Source of the DNA: Methanobacteriota archaeon | GTDB taxonomy: Archaea; Thermoplasmatota; Poseidoniia; Poseidoniales; Poseidoniaceae | Direction of reading: 5' to 3' | Length of the DNA: 36,091 nucleotides | Assembly (NCBI GenBank): GCA_018645535.1 | Contig: JABGWN010000052.1 | Coordinates: 1-36,091 of the forward strand | Shown here: positions 4,714 through 19,206 of the stretch, piece after piece | Layout of the letters: every line of letters starts with the position of its first letter | Numbering within the stretch: the first letter of the stretch is position 1 | Notes under the pieces: model-generated | Seen by the model: the letters and a program-made list of their open reading frames with translations, nothing else | Databases searched by the model: none | What the model was told of the DNA's origin: nothing | Program-made: the position numbers and the translations under genes

Positions 4714-7700
4714 TCAAGCTTGGAATCCAGGGAAGTACTGTGCAGTATAACTTGCAGCAGATTCTGAAGGATATCCTTGAGCAATTAGTCCGTTGTAGTA
4801 TTCTCTCGCTGGATCAGGTTGAGCCACAGGTGGTGCAACAGCAGCCTGAGCATAGGTTTGAGTTGGAATCGGTTGAATATACGGATTCTGTTGGGCAGCA
4901 GGCATTACCACTTGTTGTTGCATGGGTTGATGCATAGTAACATCTGGAATTTGTTTCACCATCGGATCTCCTTTTCGAGTCATCATGAAACCAGTTCCTG
5001 CCAAAATCACAACAACAAGCCCATAGACGATGAGCATGAGAGGGCTGACGAAGAAGTTCTCTTCGTCTGATTCAACTGGTTCTGGTTCAACGAACACATG
5101 TGTAAACGGATCCTCTGGATACGCATCAGCTCCATCAGCAAGTGTCCAGTTTCCATCTGGGTCTGAATAACCATCTCGATCTGTATCAGGGCATCCAAAT
5201 CGATCTGATTCAGAGAATCCAGAGACATTCGGGCAGCTATCGCCTTCAAATCCAGTAAGTTCATCCCCATACCCATCACCATCGGTATCAAACCATTGTG
5301 TGGATTCAAGTCTAAACTCATCTGCACCGTTTACAACGGTCCATGAGAGTTCAGGGTCTGAGCGACCATCACCATCGGTATCGGTACAACCTAAGCGATC
5401 GATGGTTGAATTTCCAGCTATGTTTACGCAACCATCTGGATTGACACCAGATTGATTGTCTCCATAGCCGTCACCATCAACATCGACCCATTGTGTTGCT
5501 TCTCCAGGGAATGCATCTTGCACATCCCACCATCCGTCACCATCTGAGTCGGGACAGCCAAGAATTCCATTTTGCCAACTTGCACCAGGTTGCATAGGAC
5601 ATGCATCCTGATCGGTTGCACCTGAGATGAGTGCACCAACCCAGTTCTCAGGTCGGTCGAACCAAGTTCCGTTCGCATAATTGTCACCAAAGCCATCCTC
5701 ATCGAAGTCTGACCATTGTGTGGCGTCACTTGGGAAGGCGTCTGCTCCACTGTCAACTCCCCATCCTTCAGTAGGAGTTGAAAGCCCATCACCATCGGCA
5801 TCAACGCAACCAAATCGATCTACAGTAGAGGTTCCTGGAGTATCTGGGCAAGCATCAGCAGGGGTGCTGCCGAGGTTATCCCCGTAGCCATCGTCATCAG
5901 AATCACTCCAAACGGTCGGGTCTGTAGGTAGATCATCGATGGTGTCTGCCCATCCGTCACCATCACCATCTGGACAGGCATTAAGGCCGCCTGCAGTGGA
6001 GTTACCTGCTTGATTCGGACAGTCATCCATTGTATCTGACCACATGTCGCCATCAGAGTCAAGACATCCTTCTGTACCTAGGGTGGAAGTTCCAATCACT
6101 GTTGGACAATCATCAGCAGCATCCTCAAATCCGTCGCCATCATCGTCTGTATCTTCATCAGAATCTCGGCAGCCATCGCCGTCAATATCTGTTGCTGAAT
6201 CTGAAACCCATGTTGGGCGAGGTGGAGAAAAACTTGTTCTTGGACACGTATCGTCTCCATCGACAACTCCGTCATTATCGTCATCATTATCTTCATTGGA
6301 ATCGTCTTTACATCCATCATTATCCCAATCTGTTGAGGAAGCTGGGTCATTGAAATCACGGGAACTGGTCCAATTGAATTCACCACCACGAGGACAATTA
6401 TCTGGGAAGTTATCAGTCAGTCCATCGTTGTCATCATCTGAATCACAAGCATCACCTTGCGAATCACCATCAGTATTTGCTTGATTTGAATTCGGAACTG
6501 TTGGACAATTATCTGGGGCTGAGTCTAGGACACCATCCCCATCAGTATCTTTGAGAGAAGAAGGATCAAAAACCCAAGCATAAAGATCATAGTTACCTCC
6601 AGATGAAATCTGTTTGCCTTTGTGTGTCATAGAACCTGTGAACGCCCCTGCCAATCCAATATAATCCGAATTGTTCAATGACATAGAGAATACGTAGTCG
6701 TATCCAGAACCACCAATTCGTTCAATCCAATCCACAGCACCATTTGGAGATAGGCCAACTGCGAATCCATCATGATTTTGATTAGAAAGGGATTTCGAAC
6801 CAGCATAAAATGTGGCAGTAAGGAAACCTCCAAAGACAACTCCACCATTGGAAGTAACTGCCATTCCTTGCGGTTGATCTGTTGAACTCGTACCTGAAAC
6901 CATAGCCCAACTGTTTGCTTGATTTGTGGCACTTTTAGCTACAAAAATATCATTTCCACCGTAAGCAGCAGTCGCTGTCCAACCACCGCTTGATAGAGTC
7001 CCTCCAAAGGTTCCTGAAAGATAGGTATCACCGCTTCCGCTGACTCTTATCTGCAAGACAAGTGTTTCTTGATTGGATGTACCCATTGCAGTTGTTCCCA
7101 AAACAGCAGCATTCGCATCAATTTCTACAATAACTGCATCAGCTGTTCCTATTGCAATGTGGGTATTTGAGCCCCATTGAGAGATACCATTGGTTGCCGT
7201 TGATATTTTGACACCGTTTGATGGAGTAATCGCCATATCGAAAACGCTGTCTGTACCAATGCCACCACCGTAGATGACCCAACTAAGTGTTCCTTGGTTT
7301 CCATCATACTTTGCAACATAGATGTCTTGGCTCGTGGCGTTAAGACTCATACCACCAAAATCAGTTTCTCCTTGGAATGTACCAGTTACGAATAAATCTC
7401 CCATCATATCAACTTGCATAGCAGTTGTACGACTGTTTTCTCCTGTTCCGTTAACTAAGGTAGTGAAGCCTTTCGCCCACATCCAGTTGCCGGTTGGATC
7501 CGCTTTTGCAATGAATCCTTCTAGATGGAAACCTGAATTTGTGTTGGATATGAGCGTATTAGGATTAGGAGGGCCAAAGGCAATTTCACCGTAAAAGTAT
7601 CCGGAAACAAATATTTCACCTGCCATTCCGATTGTAATATCCGATATGAAAGAAAGTCCACCGCTTCCGTAATTATGATCAGCACCTACAAGATTTGACC

Positions 7701-8061
7701 AAACACCTTGATCGTCCATGATGCCAAGGAAAAACTCCCCAAGTCCATTGTTTTGGCGATAAGGGGAAGTTGGTGCTAGTGTTTTTGTCCCATATGAGAG
7801 GGTTGAATTGAATTCAGAGCCAACAACCCATCCACCGTTGGGCAGAGCTTCGATATGATCTCCAAACTCGTTATTTGCACCAACACCAGATGTGAGAATA
7901 GATGCACTTGAGGAACGAGCAGAAGTGAGCAGAGGTTCATTGAAACTCATATCTTCTTCTGGTAATAGTTCAGAAGGAACTGGTTGCGGCATTGCAAGAA
8001 GCGATGTCAGCATTAAAGCTGTCAGAATTAGGGCAGTTACTGCATTCATATGCGTGCGCAT
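4714..8061 (-). CDS. Large cell-surface protein: signal peptide, beta-propeller-like repeats, thrombospondin type-3 / Asp-rich Ca-binding repeats, C-terminal TM anchor, P/Q-rich cytoplasmic tail
   Basis: 1115-aa uninterrupted ORF. N-terminal hydrophobic leader (AVTALILTALMLTSLLA). Repeated G(D/E).FV(S/T)G.F.G...FGG units in residues ~60-500. Classical TSP3 pattern DTDGDGVLDSAPDNCPTVPNSNQANTDGDSQGDACDSDDDNDG. TM helix FFVSPLMLIVYGLVVVILAGTGFMM at residues ~1003-1026. Confidence 0.8.
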   Translation of the reverse strand: MRTHMNAVTALILTALMLTSLLAMPQPVPSELLPEEDMSFNEPLLTSARSSSASILTSGVGANNEFGDHIEALPNGGWVVGSEFNSTLSYGTKTLAPTSPYRQNNGLGEFFLGIMDDQGVWSNLVGADHNYGSGGLSFISDITIGMAGEIFVSGYFYGEIAFGPPNPNTLISNTNSGFHLEGFIAKADPTGNWMWAKGFTTLVNGTGENSRTTAMQVDMMGDLFVTGTFQGETDFGGMSLNATSQDIYVAKYDGNQGTLSWVIYGGGIGTDSVFDMAITPSNGVKISTATNGISQWGSNTHIAIGTADAVIVEIDANAAVLGTTAMGTSNQETLVLQIRVSGSGDTYLSGTFGGTLSSGGWTATAAYGGNDIFVAKSATNQANSWAMVSGTSSTDQPQGMAVTSNGGVVFGGFLTATFYAGSKSLSNQNHDGFAVGLSPNGAVDWIERIGGSGYDYVFSMSLNNSDYIGLAGAFTGSMTHKGKQISSGGNYDLYAWVFDPSSLKDTDGDGVLDSAPDNCPTVPNSNQANTDGDSQGDACDSDDDNDGLTDNFPDNCPRGGEFNWTSSRDFNDPASSTDWDNDGCKDDSNEDNDDDNDGVVDGDDTCPRTSFSPPRPTWVSDSATDIDGDGCRDSDEDTDDDGDGFEDAADDCPTVIGTSTLGTEGCLDSDGDMWSDTMDDCPNQAGNSTAGGLNACPDGDGDGWADTIDDLPTDPTVWSDSDDDGYGDNLGSTPADACPDTPGTSTVDRFGCVDADGDGLSTPTEGWGVDSGADAFPSDATQWSDFDEDGFGDNYANGTWFDRPENWVGALISGATDQDACPMQPGASWQNGILGCPDSDGDGWWDVQDAFPGEATQWVDVDGDGYGDNQSGVNPDGCVNIAGNSTIDRLGCTDTDGDGRSDPELSWTVVNGADEFRLESTQWFDTDGDGYGDELTGFEGDSCPNVSGFSESDRFGCPDTDRDGYSDPDGNWTLADGADAYPEDPFTHVFVEPEPVESDEENFFVSPLMLIVYGLVVVILAGTGFMMTRKGDPMVKQIPDVTMHQPMQQQVVMPAAQQNPYIQPIPTQTYAQAAVAPPVAQPDPAREYYNGLIAQGYPSESAASYTAQYFPGFQA
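5107..6549 (-). repeat. Coding tandem-repeat region: Asp-rich DxDxDG (TSP3-like) units with a higher-order ~65-75-aa period
   Basis: Recurrent blocks DR(F/L)GC.D.DGDG (residues ~748, 888, 953; a related GILGCPDSDGDG block lies at ~832), (A/E)F....(A/S)TQW.D.D.DG(Y/F)GD(N/E) (TQW at ~781, 856, 921) and NCP/CP motifs. At DNA level it is GAY-rich and imperfect. Confidence 0.7.
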
Positions 8062-8097: not shown

Positions 8098-8116
8098 ATT
8101 TGTCGAGTAGACAAAT
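8098..8116 (-). terminator. Inverted repeat (7-bp stem, 5-nt loop) abutting the rpl30e stop codon; possible operon-end hairpin
   Basis: The plus strand reads ATTTGTC-GAGTA-GACAAAT at 8098-8116. No oligo-T tract follows on the minus strand, so a terminator function is uncertain. Confidence 0.2.
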
Positions 8117-8415
8117 CAGGACATATTGTCATCGAGTTGAAGCAACTCACTATCGCCTGCATCGAGAACGCAGAGTGTTGAGATACTGAATGGCTTACCG
8201 CAAGCGACACCAAGGTCACGGTTGACAATGTGTGCTTGATGCACAGTTACTTCAGGGTGTTTTGCCCGAAGGTCGTCGATGTACTCTGTTGGGCAATTAG
8301 CGGCTATGACCACCAATCTTGCATCCCCTCGAGCACAAGCAGCGAGAGTTTGTCGTTGTCCAAATAGTAGGCTACCAGTTGTAATTGCTGTTTTTAATTG
8401 TCGGCTTAGATCCAT
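8116..8415 (-). CDS. rpl30e: 50S ribosomal protein L30e
   Basis: MDLSRQLKTAITTGSLLFGQRQTLAACARGDARLVVIAANCP...VACGKPF.IS.L.V.D.G.S matches the L30e/L7Ae-fold pattern. It sits in the canonical position after rpoA2. ATG 8415 is preceded by GGAGG 7 nt upstream, and the track start at 8436 contains that SD. Confidence 0.85.
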   Translation of the reverse strand: MDLSRQLKTAITTGSLLFGQRQTLAACARGDARLVVIAANCPTEYIDDLRAKHPEVTVHQAHIVNRDLGVACGKPFSISTLCVLDAGDSELLQLDDNMS

Positions 8416-8457
8416 TTTACTTCCTCCATTCTCCACATGTGTTTCTCATGGTTGAAA

Positions 8458-10023
8458 TCATTCCTCAGGGATATAGAACAACTCAACGCTACCTGTTCCC
8501 AGGGAAATTGGTTGTCCAACGATAATGTTCTCTGCAACACCGGTAAGACGGTCTGTTTCACCGATGATACCTGCCTTAAGCAAGTGGTTTACAGTAACTT
8601 CGAAAGCAGCACGAGCAAGAATACTGTGCTTGGTTCCTGAAACACCGTGTCGGCCAATTGCACGTACCTCACCTTCAGAGGTCATGACGTCTGCAACCAT
8701 GAGAAGGTGGCGAACGTCGACTTCAAGACGAGCACTGAGCAAAGTTGCTTCAAGTTCGTTGATAATTGCTTGACGAGCAGATTCAATACCAAGATAGTTG
8801 AAGATCTCAATAATGTTGTTCGTATAGGTACGAGAACGGTCAATTGATTCGATTTCACTCACTCGTGATAGATTTGAACCAATGGTTGAGAGATAGTATT
8901 CTCCGGCTTTGTCATCGAATTGAACGTTTGCACGCTCGATGCTTGGGATACCCTTCAAACGCATGTCACGAATCTTTTCTTCAAGTTGTAGAAGCATGGT
9001 GTACGAAGGAGGATTATCCTGCAATTCAGCAAGATCCTCTTCGTTGTGAACGCCAGGAATAATGGTAAGAGTACCTGGATTCTTTTCCTTGTCTACTTGT
9101 ACATAGAGGCGAAGTGCTCGCTCAAGCTTGTCCTTAACTTCCATTCCAGTCATGTTCTTTTGCTTGAGGTTTCCTTTATTCAATTTGAGAACAAGTCGTC
9201 GTTGAGCAACGTCGGTCTCGATTTGAGCGATGTTGGCAGTCGTTGTAATCTCGAGAGAAGCAGCAAGTTTCTGTGCTTCTTCTGGAGAATTCTTGTCAGG
9301 CATCAAACGAATGATCATTGTAGGCGTACTTGGTACCTTACGTGCATCGACAATCTCAATGATACGAGGTAGACCTTGTGTGACGTTGACAGTCGCAACA
9401 CCCGCATAGTGGAACGTACGCATGGTCATCTGTGTTCCAGGCTCACCAATAGATTGAGCAGTGATAATTCCTGCAGCTTCGAATGGATCGATACTGGCTT
9501 TGTCCAGAGCATTGAATGCATCGTTGATAACAGCAGCAGCTTGCTTCTTGGTCAATTTCTTGAGTCCACGCTTGTGGATTGCAAGAGTCATATCATGAAT
9601 GATTTTGCCGCTGAAGCGGTTTGTACCCATGTCATCGACGGCTGCATGAAGAGCCTGGAAGACCTTGTCATCTGCAAGAACATCATCAAAGGAACGTAGT
9701 TTCTTTTCAACGTTGTAGACATCGAGGTCAACTGCTGTCTTTGCACGAGAACGGGTTCGAGTTCCTCTTGCTCGCATCTTACGAACTTGAGTTACTGGAC
9801 CTGTTGCTTCAGAACCGCTTGCACGGTTCTTCTTCATAGCTCCATCAATAGTTCCACGGATTGTGGCTGATGTTTCTGAATCAGTTTCGCAGATTTGAGC
9901 GATTTCTTGAGCAGTGAGAATCTTGACGTCATCCCACTTTCGATCGTTTGCTAGTGTGTGAGCAAAGTTTTCTGCAATGCCCAAATCCATGAGCTTCTTC
10001 TTGGTTGCACTCTTAACGACCAT
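8458..10023 (-). CDS. rpoA2: DNA-directed RNA polymerase subunit A'' with ~100-aa N-terminal extension
   Basis: [38 protein letters not shown] and [32 protein letters not shown] are canonical A'' blocks. The start ATG overlaps the rpoA1 stop (TGATG at 10021-10025). Confidence 0.95.
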
Positions 10024-13000
10024 CAGTCCTCACCTCCATCGTAATCGACCTCGGTTGACTCATCGTCCCATGCACCAAGATCTTCCTCACGTTCTTCACG
10101 CTCTAGACTTTCACGAGTAACAACAGTTACTCCATCGGTACCAAGAGCACCATCGATGATAACATCGATGTTGAAGGCAGATCCGTGGACACCACGGCTT
10201 GGGTCAATTCCGTCTTCTCCATAGGAGAATTGGATGATACGGTTTGCAGTGTTTCGTACAGAGAGCATATCATCATTGAAGACCTTGAGATCATCCATTG
10301 CGTTAATCAATCGGCGTTGCATGTATCCAGACTTGGAAGTACGAACCGCTGTATCGACCAGAGATTCTCTTCCAGAAACTGAGAGCATAAAGAACTCAGT
10401 TGGTTCAAGTCCACGCTTGAAAGAACCGGAAATGAATCCACGGTCTTCTGCACCACGGCCACCACGCTTGAAGTGAGGAAGAACACGGTCATCGTATCCA
10501 CGTTCAAGACGCTTACCACGAACCTTTGCTTGACCGATTGAACCAGCCATCATGTTCAGGTTATCCATTGAACCGCGAGCACCAGATATTGCCATGTTAA
10601 CAGCAGCATTGGTTGAACCGGATTGGTTCAGCTCGTTCTTAGCAACGTCACCAGCTTCTTGCTTTCCTTCATCGAGCATTACCATGATGTTCTCTTCAAG
10701 AGTTTCACGCATTGTTCGGCCAGCACGAGGTTCGTACTTTCGAGGATCGCCCTTAGCGGATTCAAAGTGTGCAAGTTCTTTGTTAACAAGTTCACCAGCT
10801 TCAGCATTTGCCGCATGGATTGCAGCAAGTGCTTCTGAAGACAAATCTTCATCATCAATACCCGTTGTAAATCCAAGCGATGTACAAGCAGCGATAGAGA
10901 GTCGTGTGAATTCATTCAAGAATTGAGCACCCTTTTCGGAACCATTTGTTTGAACGATAGCATCCAACAAACGACCGTCTTCAGCACCAATTGCACGCTT
11001 GTCAAGAGTTCCCGTAACGTTTCCGTTTCGGACGTGAACTTCGTCTCGGCTTCTTGACATGAAGTGCAGGTTGATGTTGTCAGGAATGATCAGAGAAATC
11101 AAGTCGTGTCCTCTGAATGCATCTTTTCCGTTTTCGTCCTTGATGATTTCAGGCAGTTGACCAGTGTAGTCAATACTTCCAAGCATCTCAAGACCATGGG
11201 ATTTTAGAACTGTTGTTCCAGGACGTGATAGGAGATAAGCACCAGAAATGTGGTCGTGAATACCACCGATAACTGCTCCACCGTAACGAGGTGTGAGGAT
11301 GTGCTCTTGCACTCTCATCAGAATCTTAGCTTCAGCACGAGCTTCTTCAGATTGAATAACGTGAAGGTTCATCTCGTCTCCGTCGAAATCTGCGTTGTAA
11401 GGAGTACATACAGCCAAGTTAAATCGGAATGTTTTTCCTTCCATGACACGCACTTCGTGAACCATCATCGACATTCTGTGAAGAGATGGTTGTCGGTTGA
11501 AGATTGCAACGTCTCCATCGATAAGGTGACGCTCTACTTGCATACCGGGCTTTGGATTTCCGCGTATGTCAACAGTTGAAAGTCGGTCTTCGACAGGTGT
11601 TGGCATGTCGTATTCATCGTCAGGGCTGCCACAGTGAGGGCAACGGATTTCAAGATGCGCTGGAAGTGGCTCAGGGTCAAGTTTGTCTGCTTGACCGAGT
11701 TCATGCAACCATCGATAATGGAGAACTGCACGAGGATCGTCTTCAGGCAATGGGTGACCGTGAGCATCTTCACCACGAAGGTTACGAATAGTTGCTTCAT
11801 CATCAACCAAGTAAGTCAAATCATCGAGACCGCTTCCTTCAAGATTCTGAATTTCACGAATAACCAAACCAGGTAGGAAGTTTGGAGCGAAGAGAACTTC
11901 GTTCAGATCATGACGTAGGCCAGGGTATGGTTGGCTCTTGAGAGCGTCGCCAGAGTGGCATTCAGGATTATGGCATCGGAAACCTGCGTTAATCAAACGG
12001 CTTCGAGCATTAATTCGGACACGTCGGCCGTCACCACGAACAATGTAGTTGACACCAGGGTGAACATCAGGTCCACGAAGAATCATCTGTCGCATTTGTT
12101 CTCGGTTACGTAGAGTAACACGGATAGGTACGGTCAATTCCTTTGCAATCTTCTTAGGGACACCAACTTCGTTGATTCCAAGGTACGGGTCAGGAGAGAT
12201 AACTGAACGAGCACAGAAGTTAACACGCTTACCGGATAGGTTAGAACGAAATCGTCCTTCCTTACCCTTGAGTCGTTGCGTCAGAGTCTTCAATGTACGG
12301 CCAGATCGATGACGTGCTGGAGGAATTCCAGATGTTTGGTTATCGAAGTAGGTTGTTACGTGATACTGTAGAAGTTCCCAAAGGTCTTCAACAATCAATT
12401 GAGGTGCACCAGAGTCACGATTCTCTTGCAGACGTTGGTTGATACGTAGAACGTCAACCAGCTTGTGTGTCAAGTCGTCTTCTGAACGATCTCCACTGTC
12501 AAGTGTAATCGATGGTCGAACGGTGATCGGAGGAACCGGTAGAACCTTCAAAACCGTCCATTCAGGTCGGTTTTGCTTATCCATTCCAATGAAAATCAAG
12601 TTTTCTGGAGGGATACTTGCTAGCCACTCACGAACGTCCCGAGGATTCATCTTTCTCTCAGTCTCTTTTCCGCCAGTAGTTGCATTCTCAGTCTTCTCCT
12701 TGAATGTCGTTGGCTTGTCAAGACGGATTTCTCCTTGCAGAGATCCGCAGTGCATACAAGTACGTCGGTTCTTAGCAGATGCAATCTTTTCGACTTCCTT
12801 GATGATGCTTGAGAATTCTGTTGAACCAACACCGTGCTTGGTGATGATATCACGGATACGTGATCGGTAGTAATCCTGTTCAGAAAGTTCTGGGTTGGAA
12901 GGGTGAGTTTCCTTTGCAGAGTGAAGTAGAACGTTACTGCAAGAGTTACATGTCGACTTCAGTGCTGTCTTGATGAGGTTTACGAAACCGATGTGAATAA

Positions 13001-13259
13001 CCGGAAGTTCAAGTTGGATGTGTCCAAAGTGACCTGGTGATTCGTCATACTTACAGTTGTCAGTTGGACAAACCAAACCAGGTTCGATAACACCCATGTG
13101 GGAGTCCATCAATCCTTGATTGTATGGGCGTCCATCATCCTTGTAGGTGTCAGGAGTCTTAACTTCGACAGATGACATCTTACGGATTTCACTCGGGTCC
13201 ATTAGGCTGAAACGAATCTGTGCGATTCGCTTTGGGATTAGTGTCGTTCTTCTGCTCAT
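10023..13259 (-). CDS. rpoA1: DNA-directed RNA polymerase subunit A' (with lineage-specific insertion and acidic C-terminal tail)
   Basis: Zn motifs CPTDNCK...GHFGH and CNSC...CMHCG are present. So are [28 protein letters not shown], the catalytic [12 protein letters not shown], and [26 protein letters not shown] overlap with rpoB at 13256-13259. At 1078 aa it is longer than the roughly 880-900 aa I recall for typical A'. Confidence 0.95.
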
Positions 13260-16200
13260 CTTCGGTCCTCCAGTTCTAGTCGCATAGCAACCCCGAGACT
13301 CTTCATCTCATCCAGCAAGAGCTTGAATGCGTAGGAAGTCTGTACCTTGTAGACTTCTGCACCATCTCCATGAACTGGACTGACGTAGGTTCGGCGTTTT
13401 GGATCGTACCATGCAATGTGCCCAGATTGAGCACATACAAACATGTCAATTCCGTCAGACTCATCGAGCAGACGGTCCTTGATGACCATTGAAGCACCGT
13501 GTGCAATCAGACAGTCACGTTCCATCTCACCAAATCGAAGACCACCTTGACGGGCACGACCTTCTGTTGGTTGACGGGTAAGAATTTGAACACGTCCACG
13601 GGAACGGGCGTGAATCTTGGAACTGACAAGATGGTGGAGTCTCTGATAGTAGATACATCCAACGAAAATCTCTGCAGGGTATGATTCTCCAGTTTCACCG
13701 TTCACCATGATTTCACGGCCTGTGTGGTCAAGTCCATTTCGGACAAGTCCGTCACGTAGGCTGCTTTCCTTTTCTCCACGGAATGCAGTACCGTCAATAC
13801 GACGTCCTTCCATAGCACCGACTTTACCACCGATCATTTCCAGAACGTGAGCTACAGTCATGCGGGATGGAATAGCGTGAGGGTTGATAATCAAATCAGG
13901 AACAACACCGTCTTGTGTGAATGGCATATCTTCAGGCTCTACGAGTCTACCGATAACACCCTTCTGTCCGTGACGTGAAGCGAATTTGTCTCCAACTTCA
14001 GGAATCTTGTGGCTTCGAACCATGACACGAACGAGACGACCTGAGTTGTCTGATTCTGTGACATATACGTTGTCGACCCATCCCTTCTCGCCATGGCGAA
14101 CAAGCATCGAGGATTCTCGGCGTTCTTGAGCCATAAGGAAAGCTCCACTGTTCGATTCTTCGAGGAATCGAGGTGGACTTGTCTTTCCAACGAGGACGTT
14201 TCCGCCTTCCAAGTATGTTTCTGGGAGAGGCAATCCGTCGTCTTCGAGATGAGAGTAGGCTTCAGTAGGCTTCAATCCCTTGACTTCAGTTAGCTTGTTT
14301 CCAGGCTTTTCAATCTCTTCAACTTGACCACCTGGGAATCGGCGGCGTTCTGCGTTGTAGGTTCGGTTGAAGGTTGAACGGCCAAGGCCACGATCAACTG
14401 ATGCACGGTTCATGATGACAGCGTCTTGCATGTTGTAACCGTGTAGAGACATGATTGCAACAATGAAGTTCTGACCACCAGGTCGCTCATCGAAGTTTGT
14501 GGTCTTCATAGCGGCAGTACGGACAATTGAGCGGTGAGGGTAGTGCAAGATGTGAGCACGTGTGTCAGGGCGCAGACGATAGTTTGCGCTTGGCAGACCA
14601 AGTGATTGCTTGACCATTGCAGTACCACCAGTAACACGAGGAGTCGAGTTGTGTTCTGGGTATGGAATCAGAGATGCACAAACACCGAGAACCAATTGTG
14701 GGTCGATTTCAACGTGCGTGTGTTCTGCTCCGAACAAGAGTGGAACTTCCAACTTAGCGACTTCAATCGAACCATTAGGCATTCGAACTTCTGCTTCAAG
14801 AACGGCATGTGATTCACCAGGCTGTCCGAGGTTGACCCATCGAATCTTCTCGTGTGTCACTGGACGTCCAGAGAATTTCCCATCTGGTACAGATTCAGGA
14901 AGAACGAACGGTCGTGGAGCGATGTAGAGGTCTTCTTCTTCCTCAGCATCTACCCACTCGACAATACCATCATTGACAAGATCCTTGAAGGTAATGTTAC
15001 CTGCAGCGAGATCAACAAGATGGTGGTTTTCTAAACGAGGCGTACCGTCATACAATACGAGCAATGGGCGAAGAATTCGTCCTTTGTCTGTGTTGATGAA
15101 GATGTCACGGTTCTCAAGATCGTGGCGGATGGAAACTTCCGATGGAATGGTTCCACGACGACGTGCGTTCTTGAAGTGATTTACAAGGTTCTTACCTTTC
15201 TTGTGCATACCGTAGATGTCACCGTTGACGTGAACTCTGTCACCGTCAGTCCAGTCATCTGGTTGGTATACATCCAACTCATCAAGACGTTCGCGTACTT
15301 CATGCGGGTCGACTTCTTCTGAGACGTCAATCATTTGAGCTGCGTTCTTTACAAGACCACAGTTCTGGCCTTCAGGCGTCTCGTTTGGACACAGACGTCC
15401 CCATTGTGTAGGGTGAAGGTCACGAGCTTCGAAGTGAGGTTGGCTTCGAACAAGAGGAGATGTAACTCTCCTCATGTGAGAAAGAGAAGCCAAGTATGTT
15501 GTTCTGTCAAGAAGTTGGCTTACACCAGATCGTCCTCCGACCCAGTTTCCAGTCGCAAGTGCGTGGAGAATCTTGGACGACAAAACATCCGGTCGTAGAC
15601 AGGATGTAATCTTGAGTTCTCTCTTACGGTTGTGATGGCGTTCGAGTTGATACTTCAAGTCACGAGCGAGTTGTCCAGATGATACACGGAACAAGTCTTC
15701 GATAAGGTCACCTGCAAGTCGAACACGCTTGTTTGCGTAGTGGTCCTTGTCGTTTGGTTCCTTGTCGTTAAGTGCCATTTCAAGAACTTGACGGACAATT
15801 CTTCCGAGGAAGATAGCCTTCTTCTTGCGGTCTTCTGTTTGATCGCCAAGGTGAGGTAGGAGTTCTCTGTCAAGGAGTTGGTTTACTCGTGCTTCACGGT
15901 ATTCCTTTTGTTGTCCAGCAGCGAATTTCTTTTGGAGCCATTCGTATGCTTCATTGGTACTCTTAACATCGTAATCGCCTTCTTGCTTTTCATCACCGTT
16001 AACTTCGTTGATGTTTGCGACGATGTACTTGAATGTCTCTTGAGGGCCTGAGATAGCAGTAAATACTTCTTGGTCATTTTCGATTCCAAGGGCTCTCATA
16101 AGGAGAACGACTGGAATTGGAGTTGTACCTGCAGTACTTACTTTCACCATGAGCATACCGTCACGTCGCTTTTCGACGGTGAGAGGTTTGCGCATACCGT

Positions 16201-16876
16201 TTTTCTGTGAGAAAATCTTCGCAACTTCAGTACGCTTTGCAGTGCGCTTGTTGATTTCAACAGTTACTCTGTTTGGTGCAAGATCTTCCATGGAGATGAG
16301 GACACGTTCTGTACCGTTGATGATGAAGTAGCCTCCTAGGTCAAGTGGGTCTTCGCCACGAGAGCGAAGAAGTTCTGCAAGAAGAGCAGAATCTTCGCTT
16401 GACTTACTCGGCTCGAGTGTGCGGCCATCAGCGATGTGGCTTGGGTGAAGATGACAGCGTTGTGAACGGACCATGATCGGAATTGAACCGACTTGTACAC
16501 CTTCTTCTGGGAAAGATGCGACACCGTTTCGATAGATTGTGAAATCGATGCTGACCGGGGATTGGTAGGTCAACTTACGAAGTCTGCATTCCATAGGGGA
16601 AGCATGGTGGTAAGAACCGTTAGCTTCACGGATATTTGGTGCACCGAGTTTAATGTCTTTCAAGCGAATGACGATTTCTTGGTCAGCAACGTCGAGTTTG
16701 ATGTAGCCGCCAAGGTCATCGATGATCTCTTCGTCAGTTCCGACACGGATGTTACGAATGATTTTCTCCATTCGAGAGAGTTGGTTGACTGTGGATGGGA
16801 TACAGTCGTTGTATGAAGCAAGTTGGTGGTTTACTAGGCTTCGTTCTTTGAAAAATGATTCAATAATTTCTTGCAT
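13256..16876 (-). CDS. rpoB: DNA-directed RNA polymerase subunit B (unsplit)
   Basis: Blocks seen: SYNDCIP...; GYFIINGTERVLIS.EDLAPNRV; ETPEG.NCGLVKN; GDKFASRHGQKGV; PDLIINPHAIPSRMT; the Zn-ribbon-region C-terminus; and GGLRFGEMERDCLIAHGA. The start is placed at ATG 16876 (GGAG 9-12 nt upstream, 16 nt after the rpoH stop). The track start at 16924 is a TTG inside rpoH. Confidence 0.95.
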   Translation of the reverse strand: MQEIIESFFKERSLVNHQLASYNDCIPSTVNQLSRMEKIIRNIRVGTDEEIIDDLGGYIKLDVADQEIVIRLKDIKLGAPNIREANGSYHHASPMECRLRKLTYQSPVSIDFTIYRNGVASFPEEGVQVGSIPIMVRSQRCHLHPSHIADGRTLEPSKSSEDSALLAELLRSRGEDPLDLGGYFIINGTERVLISMEDLAPNRVTVEINKRTAKRTEVAKIFSQKNGMRKPLTVEKRRDGMLMVKVSTAGTTPIPVVLLMRALGIENDQEVFTAISGPQETFKYIVANINEVNGDEKQEGDYDVKSTNEAYEWLQKKFAAGQQKEYREARVNQLLDRELLPHLGDQTEDRKKKAIFLGRIVRQVLEMALNDKEPNDKDHYANKRVRLAGDLIEDLFRVSSGQLARDLKYQLERHHNRKRELKITSCLRPDVLSSKILHALATGNWVGGRSGVSQLLDRTTYLASLSHMRRVTSPLVRSQPHFEARDLHPTQWGRLCPNETPEGQNCGLVKNAAQMIDVSEEVDPHEVRERLDELDVYQPDDWTDGDRVHVNGDIYGMHKKGKNLVNHFKNARRRGTIPSEVSIRHDLENRDIFINTDKGRILRPLLVLYDGTPRLENHHLVDLAAGNITFKDLVNDGIVEWVDAEEEEDLYIAPRPFVLPESVPDGKFSGRPVTHEKIRWVNLGQPGESHAVLEAEVRMPNGSIEVAKLEVPLLFGAEHTHVEIDPQLVLGVCASLIPYPEHNSTPRVTGGTAMVKQSLGLPSANYRLRPDTRAHILHYPHRSIVRTAAMKTTNFDERPGGQNFIVAIMSLHGYNMQDAVIMNRASVDRGLGRSTFNRTYNAERRRFPGGQVEEIEKPGNKLTEVKGLKPTEAYSHLEDDGLPLPETYLEGGNVLVGKTSPPRFLEESNSGAFLMAQERRESSMLVRHGEKGWVDNVYVTESDNSGRLVRVMVRSHKIPEVGDKFASRHGQKGVIGRLVEPEDMPFTQDGVVPDLIINPHAIPSRMTVAHVLEMIGGKVGAMEGRRIDGTAFRGEKESSLRDGLVRNGLDHTGREIMVNGETGESYPAEIFVGCIYYQRLHHLVSSKIHARSRGRVQILTRQPTEGRARQGGLRFGEMERDCLIAHGASMVIKDRLLDESDGIDMFVCAQSGHIAWYDPKRRTYVSPVHGDGAEVYKVQTSYAFKLLLDEMKSLGVAMRLELEDRR

Positions 16877-16892
16877 AATATCAACTCCAGCC

Positions 16893-17540
16893 TCAGCTGC
16901 CCTCCACAATAAGCCGGTAAGCAACAGCAGTACCAGCAGATTTGGAATGTCTCTTTACTTTCAGAACACGGTCTGCAATCCATCCCGCTGCGAGTGGGCG
17001 GTGTTCAGGATTTGCTGCAAGTGTTGCATTGTCGAGGAGTTCACAAGCCTCTTTGATGGCTTGAACAACGGGGTCTGAGATTAGGACTTTCGGGAGAAGT
17101 TCCTTTGCAAGACGTGGTTTTCCGTCTTCGTCGAGTTCTTCAAGACCCCAAGGAAGGAGTTCTTCCTTTTCCAAGTCATATTGCTCTTGTTCGCTGATGT
17201 TTGCCTCGCCGAGAAGTTCCTGATGAGGGACCAGTTCGTGGTTCAGGGGGTTGAAACGACTGGTTGCTTCAGGACGATCGAACTCGTCGATTGCTTTGGA
17301 GGAAATTGTGATTTTCTTGCTTCGCTTGTTACGAGAACGGCGGTTCCCTTGCTCGGCAATAATTTGCATAACTTTGGTGAAGGATTCGCTGTCTTTTGCG
17401 ATTCCAAGAATTTTTGCGACGTCGTCAGCAGGCATGGCCTTAATGTCGGCCATGTTTCTGTCCGTAGCCAATTTGTGGGCGTATTCGTCGGATACTCCGA
17501 GTTCGATTAGTCGCTTTTTTGTTGCGCTCTTTACTACCAT
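16893..17540 (-). CDS. rpoH: DNA-directed RNA polymerase subunit H, expanded (~215 aa) with N-terminal extension and two internal insertions
   Basis: The C-terminal part matches the RpoH/Rpb5 C-domain: HELVPHQELL ... LPKVLISDPVVQAI ... DRVLKVKRHSKSAGTAVAYRLIV. It is in first position of the rpo operon. ATG 17540 gives an [10 protein letters not shown]-terminus identical to that of RpoA''. The track start at 17555 is GTG. Confidence 0.85.
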   Translation of the reverse strand: MVVKSATKKRLIELGVSDEYAHKLATDRNMADIKAMPADDVAKILGIAKDSESFTKVMQIIAEQGNRRSRNKRSKKITISSKAIDEFDRPEATSRFNPLNHELVPHQELLGEANISEQEQYDLEKEELLPWGLEELDEDGKPRLAKELLPKVLISDPVVQAIKEACELLDNATLAANPEHRPLAAGWIADRVLKVKRHSKSAGTAVAYRLIVEGS

Positions 17541-17587
17541 CTCATTCAACCCCACTTCGCCCCAACGTCGTACTGCAGCGCATCAGG

Positions 17588-17661
17588 CGGGCCCGACGGG
17601 GTTCGAACCCGCGACCATCGGATTAAAAGTCCGACGCTCTACCTGACTGAGCTACGAGCCC
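17588..17661 (-). tRNA. tRNA-Lys (anticodon UUU), no encoded CCA
   Basis: The minus strand reads GGGCTCG-TA-GCTC-AGTCAGGTA-GAGC-G-TCGGA-CTTTTAA-TCCGA-TGGTC-GCGGG-TTCGAAC-CCCGT-CGGGCCC-G. This is a 74-nt cloverleaf with a 7-bp acceptor stem (one G-U), a GG in the D loop, and a TTCGAAC T loop. The anticodon loop is CU-UUU-AA. Confidence 0.88.
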
Positions 17662-17757
17662 AACGTTGCTTCTTGGGCTTTCAATGCGAACTACCACCCC
17701 TTCATATACCTTACCGATGAGATTGCACCCATTGAATTGATTGGAAAGTCTCTTCAA

Positions 17758-19206
17758 ATGCCGACATTAGGGCAAAACGATTGGAATATGTTTGATGAAA
17801 AGAAAGCATTTCGAGAAATCGAATTGTTGGGTGGTGAAGCCAGAGAAATTCACTGGAAGAATTTCGACTTGATCGTACCTCATACTGTATATCCACCAAG
17901 AGAGGATACCGATCTTCTCGCAAGTGTCCTCGAGAAGGTCACACCCTTTGCCAAAAAGCGGCTTCTCGAAATCGGCAGTGGCTCGGGCGCTCTCTCGATT
18001 TTAGCAGCATCTATTGGATGGGAAGTAGAAGCCTGTGACATCAATCCGTTTGCAGTTGCTGCAACCCGATTCAATGCTCTTGAAAATAAGTTCCAAATCA
18101 TATCATCAGAGGGAGGTATCGGCCCGACCAAAGATGGACGTTCTTCACAATGGATGAAACCCGGCACCTATGACCTCGTGATGTGGAACATGCCTTACAT
18201 TCCTGCAGAGGAGATTGAAGAGTATCTTGGACCGTTGGAAGATGCGGCTTTGGTCGACACACATCCATCAGGTTTGTTGAGCAAGTTTGCTGATATGATG
18301 CGACGATTCCAAATTATTTCCCCTACAGGTCTCGCTCTCATCTTGTGCAGAGAGAACATCGGGGCGCTTCGAACACAAGACATACTTCTTGCAAATGGAT
18401 TAGCAACCCGAAAAGTATCAAAACGTACATTCGATGATGATGAAACCATCCAAGTACTTGCAGCATGGCATCCGTTTGTGAAGTCTAAGAAACAACAAAT
18501 GCATACTGTCCCTTCAACAAATTCGGAAATGCTTGAAGGATCCTACAAGCCAGGCGATTCCCTCCGAACAAGATTCCAAACTGGCGGAAAAGGACGCCAT
18601 GGTCGAACATGGGATGACCATCTTGACTCCTTCAAGGGAAGTTGGAAACTCAATCCTGACCGAATACCGCACATTTCGTCCCAATTGCAGTGCAAAGTTG
18701 CTCTTGAGATTGCTTCATTGCTGCAATCGATGGCGGCTGAGGAAGATGTCCTTCGAGTAAAGTGGCCAAATGATCTCCTCGTGCGGGACAGTAAATCCAA
18801 ACAATGGAAAAAAGCAGGGGGTATTCTCTTCCAATCACTCTCGAGAGGGACAGAACAATCTCTTGTTCTCGGCATCGGGATTAACACAAAAACAACCACT
18901 GATGTTCAAGGACGAGGCTCATTAGAAGAAATAGGGGTTGACCTCGACAATACTGAACTTTTTACCCTTCTTGACACCATTGTATCTTCCCTGTTTGAAA
19001 ACAAATCCAACTTGATGAATGTCTCGAGTGAAAGCACAGAACTCAACCTTGATTTATTACTTAGAGATTGCATCTATAGAAATAAAGAATGCACAGTTCG
19101 TGGTGTTTCTGATGAAGGAGAACTTCAAATTGAATCAGACAAAGGAGAATCCTTCGATATCTCTGATGATCTTAGTCTTCTTTGGCCTCATCTTCAACTT
19201 CAATAA
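17758..19206 (+). CDS. Fusion protein: HemK/Mtq2-like class I SAM-dependent methyltransferase (N-terminal) + biotin--protein ligase BirA-like catalytic and C-terminal domains
   Basis: MTase part: LIVPHTVYPPREDTDLLASVL, the SAM motif LLEIGSGSGALSILAA, and an NPPY-like VMWNMPYIP. BPL part: STNSEML..., the signature RFQTGGKGRHGRTWDD, KWPNDLLV, KKAGGILFQS and LGIGINT. One uninterrupted frame. The first ATG is at 17758; the track start at 17737 is TTG. Confidence 0.75.
   Translation: MPTLGQNDWNMFDEKKAFREIELLGGEAREIHWKNFDLIVPHTVYPPREDTDLLASVLEKVTPFAKKRLLEIGSGSGALSILAASIGWEVEACDINPFAVAATRFNALENKFQIISSEGGIGPTKDGRSSQWMKPGTYDLVMWNMPYIPAEEIEEYLGPLEDAALVDTHPSGLLSKFADMMRRFQIISPTGLALILCRENIGALRTQDILLANGLATRKVSKRTFDDDETIQVLAAWHPFVKSKKQQMHTVPSTNSEMLEGSYKPGDSLRTRFQTGGKGRHGRTWDDHLDSFKGSWKLNPDRIPHISSQLQCKVALEIASLLQSMAAEEDVLRVKWPNDLLVRDSKSKQWKKAGGILFQSLSRGTEQSLVLGIGINTKTTTDVQGRGSLEEIGVDLDNTELFTLLDTIVSSLFENKSNLMNVSSESTELNLDLLLRDCIYRNKECTVRGVSDEGELQIESDKGESFDISDDLSLLWPHLQLQ

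Follow-up and report, generated by a model that had tools for sequence, protein, structure and literature searches.

A paralogous N-terminal module on RNA polymerase subunits RpoA'' and RpoH of Poseidoniales recurs on proteins of virus- or plasmid-like contigs

RpoA'' (Rpo1C) and RpoH (Rpo5), two neighbouring RNA polymerase (RNAP) subunits of Poseidoniales archaea, both begin with a copy of the same small module, which an Arg/Lys-rich tether joins to the body of the subunit, and this module also heads many unrelated proteins encoded on virus- or plasmid-like contigs. We analysed the pair in a stretch of 36,091 nucleotides from a Poseidoniaceae genome (contig JABGWN010000052.1 of assembly GCA_018645535.1; the whole stretch is hereafter called the window). 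Poseidoniales (Marine Group II) belong to the most abundant archaea of the surface ocean, and the module constitutes a lineage-specific RNAP accessory domain, which is unusual in its new sequence family, its presence on two neighbouring subunits and its sharing with virus-like elements.

Results

Two RNAP subunits share a paralogous N-terminal module

Both genes lie on the minus strand of the window, rpoA'' at 8458..10023 (521 aa) and rpoH at 16893-17540 (215 aa counted from the ATG at 17540), and both proteins consist of module, tether and canonical body. The RpoA'' module occupies residues 1-65 (9829..10023), where AlphaFold2 (AF2) modelling, Foldseek and conservation point to an invariant Lys-rich tail followed by a five-helix domain resembling the double helix-hairpin-helix, (HhH)2, fold; its tether, residues 66-112 (9688..9828), is a variable Arg/Lys-rich linker delimited by conservation, charge and a phmmer alignment. 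The RpoH module, assigned by BLASTP, AF2 and conservation, again spans residues 1-65 (17346..17540) and is followed by a basic tether, residues 66-104 (17229..17345), which includes the stretch GNRRSRNKRSKK. Both proteins start with MVVKSATKK, and the consensus of the Lys-rich N-terminal tail is this motif followed by Lys or Arg.

The original prediction, made from the letters of the window alone, had counted 23 identical residues among the leading 44, and a recount returned the same figure; BLASTP aligned the two N-terminal regions with 32/80 identities (40%, E = 3e-14). The Arg/Lys-rich stretch that it had described after both domains was also found in both proteins. When either module was searched against the six frames of the whole window with tblastn, only the other copy was returned (E 1.5e-12 and 4e-13) and the next best match had E 0.37, indicating that the window holds exactly two copies, related far beyond chance. 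At the DNA level the copies are 61% identical overall and 32% identical at third codon positions, a value that rules out recent gene conversion between them and places the conserved similarity at the protein level. The two modules are thus ancient paralogues that have been kept alike by protein-level selection.

The gene identities and the operon named in the original prediction were confirmed by Pfam, NCBIfam and gene order, and its estimate that the canonical folds begin at about residue 100 was roughly right, the starts lying at residue 96 in RpoH and near residue 113 in RpoA''. In RpoA'', Pfam assigns residues 145-467 to PF04998 (Rpb1 domain 5, E 1.6e-49) and NCBIfam assigns residues 140-516 to TIGR02389 (416.9 bits, slightly under the cut-off of 420.65), both profiles beginning within residues 140-145. 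The A'' chains of Sulfolobus, Thermococcus and Pyrococcus in the PDB match from query residue 133 (phmmer, E 3e-83), which pairs with residue 20 of Sulfolobus A'' and therefore sets the beginning of the canonical part near residue 113. A shifted A'/A'' split as the origin of the extension was ruled out because Rpb1 domain 5 is divided at its usual profile position, with positions 1-66 ending RpoA' and positions 66-265 resuming at residue 145 of RpoA''; module and linker are thus an addition.

RpoH, whose orthologues carry this name in JGI and NCBI, matches PF01191 with 30.1 bits (gathering cut-off 23.5), covering profile positions 1-73 with an insertion; counted from ATG 17540, Rpb5_C begins at residue 96, and NF007129 is matched at E 3e-11, under its curated cut-off. 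No match to Pfam RNA_pol_Rpb5_N was found in the N-terminal region at E<=1. The Rpb5-C-like body comprises residues 105-215 and, with the stop codon, extends over 16893..17228 on the minus strand, with predicted local distance difference test (pLDDT) values of 65-83. It contains an acidic insertion of about 40 residues (approximately residues 110-150; ~17091-17213, minus strand), and the 73-position Pfam profile is stretched over 116 residues. This insertion may explain why phmmer matched the body to no solved Rpb5 among PDB sequences and why a PDB Foldseek search with the full-length AF2 model, a low-confidence model of several domains (mean pLDDT 66), returned no Rpb5 chains.

Translation, start sites and selection

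Read from the sequence, the translation start of rpoA'' (10021..10037, minus strand) consists of a Shine-Dalgarno-like GGAGGTGA (10030-10037), a 6-nt spacer and an ATG (10021-10023) that overlaps the TGA stop codon of rpoA' by one base. GTDB genomes and JGI metagenomes yielded 139 RpoA'' and 41 RpoH genes in which the frame runs from the module to the stop codon; a few further loci were interrupted by a contig end or an internal stop. Every orthologue of either subunit that was recovered contains the module. The codon for its first residue is ATG in 139/139 RpoA'' genes, and among the 41 RpoH genes it is ATG in 33, TTG in 6 and GTG in 2.

Codons 2-11 of rpoA'' show a proportion of nonsynonymous differences (pN) of 0.017 against a proportion of synonymous differences (pS) of 0.53, and over the whole module pN/pS is 0.17 in RpoA'' and 0.28 in RpoH, with synonymous sites varying freely (pS 0.53-0.75). 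Conservation of the first codons at the RNA level was ruled out, as their synonymous sites are free (pS 0.53-0.69) and their amino acids fixed. Mean pairwise identity among 80 non-redundant RpoA'' proteins is 1.00 over residues 1-10 and 0.64-0.84 over residues 11-50, falling to 0.30-0.50 over residues 51-130 (0.30-0.48 in the tether); conservation of the module is thus comparable to that of the catalytic body, and the tether is variable. In 35 RpoH orthologues the module is the best-conserved part of the protein (0.91 over residues 1-10 and 0.87 over residues 21-30). Taken together, these comparisons indicate that the module is translated and that purifying selection on it is strong. One tryptic peptide specific to it is LIELGVSDEYAHK.

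A stand-alone small gene or a programmed frameshift, suggested by 'proteins' of 55-166 aa in the first search, was rejected when these proved to be frameshifted long-read assemblies and contig-end fragments. In two ENA 'pilon' long-read contigs (L001 and L002) every RNAP gene is broken into 3-8 frameshift fragments, and fragments of such assemblies dominated the word-indexed protein search, mimicking small 'hypothetical proteins'. About half of the listed database RpoH entries start at Met12 (MELGV; 205 aa vs 216 aa) and thereby lose the invariant N-terminus; the use of TTG or GTG as the true start in several genomes probably misleads gene callers. Other database RpoH calls extend back through the tRNA gene (e.g., P0030).

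The module adopts a predicted (HhH)2-like fold with an acidic core

Modelled with AF2 from an alignment of 25 sequences, the module gave a pLDDT of 83 and five helices at residues 6-13, 18-24, 30-34, 38-45 and 49-65, residues 1-5 being placed outside the helices. The same five helices are found in the full-length RpoH model, in which residues 67-104 have pLDDT values below 50, so that the tether is predicted to be disordered. Searched against the PDB with Foldseek, the module ranked (HhH)2 domains first, with template modelling (TM) scores of 0.62-0.74, probabilities up to 0.99 and E-values of 0.6-3, which are not significant, as is usual for domains of 66 residues. The best match is a NusA acidic repeat (1wcl; TM 0.74, root mean square deviation 2.0 Å over 63 columns, identity 21%); others are FANCM/FAAP24, the N-terminal domains of RadA/Rad51, Hef and XPF, together with topologically related SAM domains. 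The Foldseek check for similarity to a nucleic-acid-binding fold that the original prediction had proposed thus put (HhH)2 domains on top; of the two structural relatives it had suggested, the RadA/Rad51 N-terminal domain is among the best matches, and the C-terminal domain of the bacterial RNAP alpha subunit (alpha-CTD) is not in the Foldseek top 50. At the sequence level the module matched nothing in Pfam, NCBIfam or the PDB, the window copies had no HHH-clan hit at E<=1, and among 25 module members a single one matched a Pfam HhH family (HHH_6, E 0.15). A Foldseek search against predicted viral structures returned no significant or informative match. The models therefore support assignment to the (HhH)2 fold class, in line with the fold suggested in the original prediction, and homology to any HhH family is not supported.

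Charge is distributed in a characteristic manner along the module. The N-terminal tail (residues 1-10) carries +4 invariantly in RpoA'' (n=80) and +4 in RpoH (range +3 to +4, n=35). The folded core (residues 11-65) has a mean net charge of -5.1 in RpoA'' (n=80) and -6.2 in RpoH (n=35), ranging from -2 to -9 among the 115 orthologues and never becoming positive. The tether is basic again, with a mean net charge of +4.9 in RpoA'' (length 40-48, n=80) and +5.4 in RpoH (n=35), and Lys and Arg make up a fraction of 0.33 of RpoH residues 66-95. In the hairpins, the Gly-hydrophobic-Gly (G-h-G) signature lacks its second Gly: hairpin 1 reads G-I-A-E-N, G-V-S-D-E or L-V-P-E-E, hairpin 2 reads C-E-T-D-S-E in RpoA'', and GIEEE also occurs. 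The first hairpin Gly (G15) is replaced by Leu in the 'MDMLVPEE' clade and is therefore not invariant. The core thus presents no neutral or basic DNA-contact surface, and an acidic core without G-h-G makes classical backbone-clamping HhH DNA binding unlikely. The proposal of the original prediction that the folded domain is a nucleic-acid-binding HhH was not supported in that form, given a core charge of about -5 to -6, the missing signature, the absence of a Pfam HhH assignment and the NusA acidic repeat as best match. As far as sequence can tell, the basic tail and tether are likelier nucleic-acid binders than the core.

The double fusion is a feature of Poseidoniales

A pattern scan of GTDB gave at least 599 matches, of which the best 80 loci were analysed. 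All 80 belong to Poseidoniales metagenome-assembled genomes, including the original MG-II genome CM001443.1, and RpoA'' reads unbroken over 517-530 aa in all but a few of them, where a contig end or an internal stop intervenes. The operon order of the window is rpoH-rpoB-rpoA'-rpoA''-L30e on the minus strand; in 41 metagenome loci, where both subunits carry the module, the order rpoH-rpoB-rpoA'-rpoA'' with rpoH first is repeated, and wherever the flank is long enough module-bearing RpoH lies about 7.5 kb upstream of module-bearing RpoA''. RpoH forms of 215/216 aa are labelled Poseidoniaceae or Poseidoniales and forms of 195 aa Thalassarchaeaceae or Thalassarchaeum, which implies that the double fusion predates the split of the two families. 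The extension, whose absence from related genomes would have spoken for an assembly fault, is thus present in both Poseidoniales families.

Among 1.84 billion representative proteins the module profile had only 205 hits, and within the RNAP operons examined the module was found on RpoH and RpoA'' only. The PDB search matched solved archaeal RNAPs whose A'' subunits, at 391-397 residues, lack the extension, and archaeal RpoH/Rpo5 is described as having no N-terminal domain (PMC3906176, PMC3479171). We found no description of the module in the searchable literature, in agreement with the original prediction, which was aware of no such module for archaeal RNAP.

The module heads unrelated proteins on virus- or plasmid-like contigs

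RNAP subunits are not the only proteins with the module, a point that the original prediction had missed. A tail of at least 40 aa follows the module in 86 representatives; 62 of these match nothing of the RNAP operon in any frame, and these carriers fall into at least 12 multi-member families and about 20 singletons. Examples are a 1292-aa protein (P0157), families of about 330, 290, 215, 180 and 170 aa, and an AAA ATPase with zinc fingers. One 186-aa protein (P0231) has two modules in tandem, and in a 547-aa HEAT-repeat-like protein (P0154) the module is at the C-terminus. A 193-aa protein found on several independent contigs (P0164; 314-895 of contig L085) continues after the module with a single TFIIB cyclin repeat (PF00382, above threshold); it has no Zn ribbon, and the module stands where TFB has its RNAP-binding Zn ribbon. 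Many carriers retain residues 1-45 only. When typed by profile score, 23 of the 62 carriers were RpoA''-like, 19 RpoH-like and 20 ambiguous.

The contigs of some carriers were examined, and all of these are virus- or plasmid-like, with dense unannotated genes on one strand plus typical mobile-element genes. Two (L087 and L089) encode an AEP primase-like protein, a full TFB and a Holliday-junction-resolvase-like nuclease; an 83-kb contig (L170) has virion-structural and tail-fibre PHROGs, dCMP deaminase and Cu/Zn superoxide dismutase; another (L171) encodes DNA methyltransferases, ERCC4, FEN, GmrSD and UvdE; and a 100-kb contig (L174) encodes PCNA, ribonucleotide reductase, ERCC4, Mom and ParA. 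The last, which is magrovirus-like, has two adjacent module genes of 143 and 164 aa (9554-10495, plus strand) beside PCNA and ribonucleotide reductase, and is the only one with two among the virus-like contigs checked for multiple module genes. The gene content of the carrier contigs agrees with descriptions of magroviruses (PMC5434244). Magrovirus group D has been reported to encode a 'DNA-dependent RNA polymerase A' closest to archaeal homologues (PMC5434244); this may be a module-bearing protein (e.g., P0157) that matches RpoA'' through the shared N-terminus.

Carriage by many unrelated proteins shifts the most likely function from a DNA-binding module to a shared interaction or docking module with basic flanks that probably bind nucleic acid. 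Such carriage, including that by a TFB-like protein, is as expected of a shared interaction module, not of a sequence-specific or purely structural element.

Other features of the operon and its surroundings

The remaining operon genes of the window, assigned from the open reading frame (ORF) list with Pfam and NCBIfam, are rpoB (13256-16924), rpoA' (10023-13259) and the L30e gene (8116-8436), all on the minus strand. RpoA' is 1078 aa long compared with about 880 in reference models, and an insertion of about 150 residues (residues ~420-570; ~11552-12002, minus strand) splits Pfam Rpb1 domain 2; it holds Cys/His clusters (CHNPECH and another) resembling zinc-ribbon elements. The ORF that holds rpoH is open further upstream (16893..17555, minus strand). 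A tRNA-Lys(UUU) identified by ARAGORN directly upstream (17586..17661) bounds the possible start region of rpoH; it is on the same strand and ends 45 bases before the rpoH ATG, and since no obvious promoter lies in between, rpoH may be co-transcribed with the tRNA. Divergent from this unit is a 489-aa ORF (17737-19206, plus strand), in which an N-terminal PrmA/MTS-type methyltransferase domain is fused to a biotin/lipoate protein ligase domain. The L30e gene is followed by a 1115-aa protein (4714-8061, minus strand) where archaeal operons usually have nusA and rpsL. Its N-terminus is signal-like, its C-terminus holds a membrane anchor, and it contains many Asp-rich thrombospondin type 3-like repeats.

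Discussion

Archaeal Rpo5/RpoH has no Rpb5 jaw. In Sulfolobales, Rpo13 occupies the resulting groove next to the clamp head, close to the N-terminal part of Rpo5, and its Lys-rich disordered tail binds downstream double-stranded DNA weakly and non-specifically; in other archaea, analogous factors or subunits were predicted to fill the Rpo5 groove (PMC2675907, PMC3479171, PMC13257274). In initiation complexes, subunit H is near downstream DNA (PMC2847245), and RpoA'' makes many contacts with Rpb5/Rpo5 (PMC13257274). We propose that the two modules are tethered interaction arms at the lower-jaw face of the enzyme, each with a docking core and a basic nucleic-acid-binding tail and tether, and that viruses exploit them. 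We put this composite reading forward tentatively, as an account that may well be correct while falling a little short of probable. Both arms would sit at the lower-jaw/shelf face beside the entry of downstream DNA, at the site of the Rpb5 jaw in eukaryotes and of Rpo13 in Sulfolobales. An Arg/Lys-rich tether of 35-50 residues, predicted to be disordered, joins the acidic domain of about 55 residues to RpoH and to RpoA'', and tail and tether would provide weak, non-specific affinity for nucleic acid, like the Lys-rich tail of Rpo13. The acidic and very strongly conserved core may serve as a protein-docking or pairing surface, and viruses or mobile elements of Poseidoniales would head unrelated proteins with the module, presumably so that these gain access to the same partner or to RNAP itself.

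Several points weigh against this proposal. The location of the arms, and their nearness to each other and to DNA, is suggested by analogy, and is most conjectural for the A'' N-terminus. The Foldseek E-values that underlie the fold class are not significant, and the module as a whole could still bind nucleic acid despite its acidic core. That the carriers are viral is deduced from the gene content of eight distinct contigs: searches of IMG/VR with the module and two carrier families, and of the GenBank phage collection with the module and the 1292-aa carrier, returned no relatives, so that the viral or mobile assignment comes from metagenome contigs. A more specific possibility, which we regard as rather unlikely, is that the RpoA''- and RpoH-type copies heterodimerise into a clasp at the downstream-DNA entrance, as XPF-ERCC1 and FANCM-FAAP24 pair, and that viruses copied both types onto dozens of their own proteins, which would dock on RNAP and re-programme or block it by displacing one partner, the TFB-like protein without Zn ribbon and the AAA ATPase being examples. 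If true, a cellular RNA polymerase would contain a host-virus 'common plug' system as an integral part.

Other explanations must be set against the tethered-arm proposal. A classical DNA-binding domain, whose core clamps the sugar-phosphate backbone of the duplex through two hairpins and so equips RNAP with a pair of integral, non-specific anchors on DNA, would suit the five-helix (HhH)2 topology, the structural similarity to RadA, Hef, XPF and FANCM/FAAP24 and a pattern (L-x-x-L-G-[IV]-x-x-x-x-A-H-x-L-A) resembling the HhH consensus; basic segments on either side would strengthen such binding, and the expected position near downstream DNA agrees with it (PMC2675907, PMC3479171). We nevertheless consider this unlikely, as the core is acidic in every orthologue with acidic residues in the hairpins themselves (GIAEN, GVSDE, GIEEE, CETDSE), the second Gly of G-h-G is missing and the first is Leu in one clade, Pfam HhH families yielded one weak match in 25 members, and the closest structure is a protein-binding NusA acidic repeat. 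The same acidity, on a flexible tether and with an invariant charge pattern, could instead point to a DNA mimic that fills the downstream DNA channel as long as RNAP is free and is pushed out on promoter loading, like bacterial sigma region 1.1, with viral carriers plugging or hijacking the channel. Its tether points are on subunits lining that channel (PMC2847245, PMC2675907), and viral carriage is compatible with host-takeover proteins. The idea comes from analogy, however, the need for two copies per enzyme is not obvious, and the strongly basic tail on the same domain fits a DNA mimic poorly; we regard such a gatekeeper as quite improbable.

Equally hard to credit is a tag unrelated to transcription, in which the invariant N-terminus and the first HhH act as a targeting, assembly or turnover signal recognised by a chaperone, a cell structure or a virion. 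Such a tag would account for a tail that over its first 10 residues is 100% invariant in RpoA'' and almost unchanged in all carriers, though residues 1-5 lie outside the AF2 helices, for the many viral carriers that keep residues 1-45 only, and for the great diversity of carrier tails. It is at odds with the restriction of the module, in the RNAP operons examined, to RpoH and RpoA'', which are physical neighbours in the enzyme; one carrier is TFB-like and one carrier-bearing mobile element encodes its own TFB, both pointing to transcription, and no signal-peptide-like or known degron feature was seen. Finally, the many database RpoH entries that start at Met12, and a first protein search that gave short 'hypothetical proteins' only, might suggest an annotation or assembly artefact, with translation starting downstream of a non-coding or chimeric similarity. 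As far as sequence evidence reaches, this is refuted, and we give it practically no credence: the short hits come from frameshifted long-read assemblies and from fragments at contig ends, the frame is unbroken from module to body in the 139 RpoA'' and 41 RpoH genes from independent assemblies, purifying selection is strong with free synonymous change, and the rpoA'' start has a Shine-Dalgarno sequence and a stop-start overlap.

If the tethered-arm reading holds, a fused domain from an undescribed sequence family appears to occupy the void beside Rpo5 in Poseidoniales, and it is unusual that the same domain is also present on the neighbouring catalytic subunit RpoA''. The module on virus-like contigs offers a concrete handle on the interplay between viruses and the transcription machinery in an uncultured host, and MVVKSATKK provides a sequence marker for finding module-bearing proteins. 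The hypothesis is open to testing with recombinant proteins and does not need culture of the organism.

Comparison with known systems

Rpo13 of Sulfolobales and Desulfurococcales resembles the module in being lineage-specific and in combining a helical element with a basic disordered segment near the Rpo5 N-terminus, the position of the module itself being conjectural. The authors of the Rpo13 work expected the Rpo5/Rpo1N void of other archaea to be filled by 'analogous rather than orthologous' elements (PMC2675907, PMC3479171). In contrast to the module, Rpo13 is a separate helix-turn-helix subunit, not an (HhH)2 domain; it is not fused to Rpo5, has no second copy on Rpo1C and is not known from viruses, and we detected no sequence relationship between the two. 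The Rpb5 jaw is likewise an extra N-terminal domain on the same subunit, forming a 'guard rail' along downstream DNA (PMC3479171). It differs in having another fold of about 130 residues, in being rigid instead of tethered and in being absent from Rpb1, and the module has no Pfam Rpb5_N match.

The acidic repeats AR1/AR2 of NusA (1wcl) provide the best structural match and are acidic (HhH)2 domains within the transcription machinery. They bind proteins (lambda N and alpha-CTD) rather than DNA. Unlike the module, they are bacterial and C-terminal on an elongation factor, and no Pfam or profile link connects the two. The RadA/Rad51 N-terminal domain and the Hef/XPF/FANCM-FAAP24 domains share the five-helix topology (TM 0.6-0.74), and since the nuclease-family (HhH)2 domains act as homo- or heterodimers, pairing between the modules of RpoH and RpoA'' would have a precedent; these domains have G-h-G hairpins and bind DNA, whereas the module is acidic and has no such signature. 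Like the module, the bacterial alpha-CTD is small and helical, is attached through a flexible linker and occurs twice in each RNAP. It contains an HhH and contacts both DNA and regulators. The alpha-CTD differs in its C-terminal position on an assembly subunit and in its basic DNA-binding surface, and was not among the top 50 structural matches.

The module, which shares no sequence relationship with Rpo13, the Rpb5 jaw, the NusA acidic repeats or the alpha-CTD, lacks the HhH signature and a DNA-binding charge pattern and sits on different subunits, is thus a member of none of these groups. Functionally it comes closest to Rpo13 and the Rpb5 jaw, structurally to the NusA acidic repeat, and in architecture to the two tethered alpha-CTDs.

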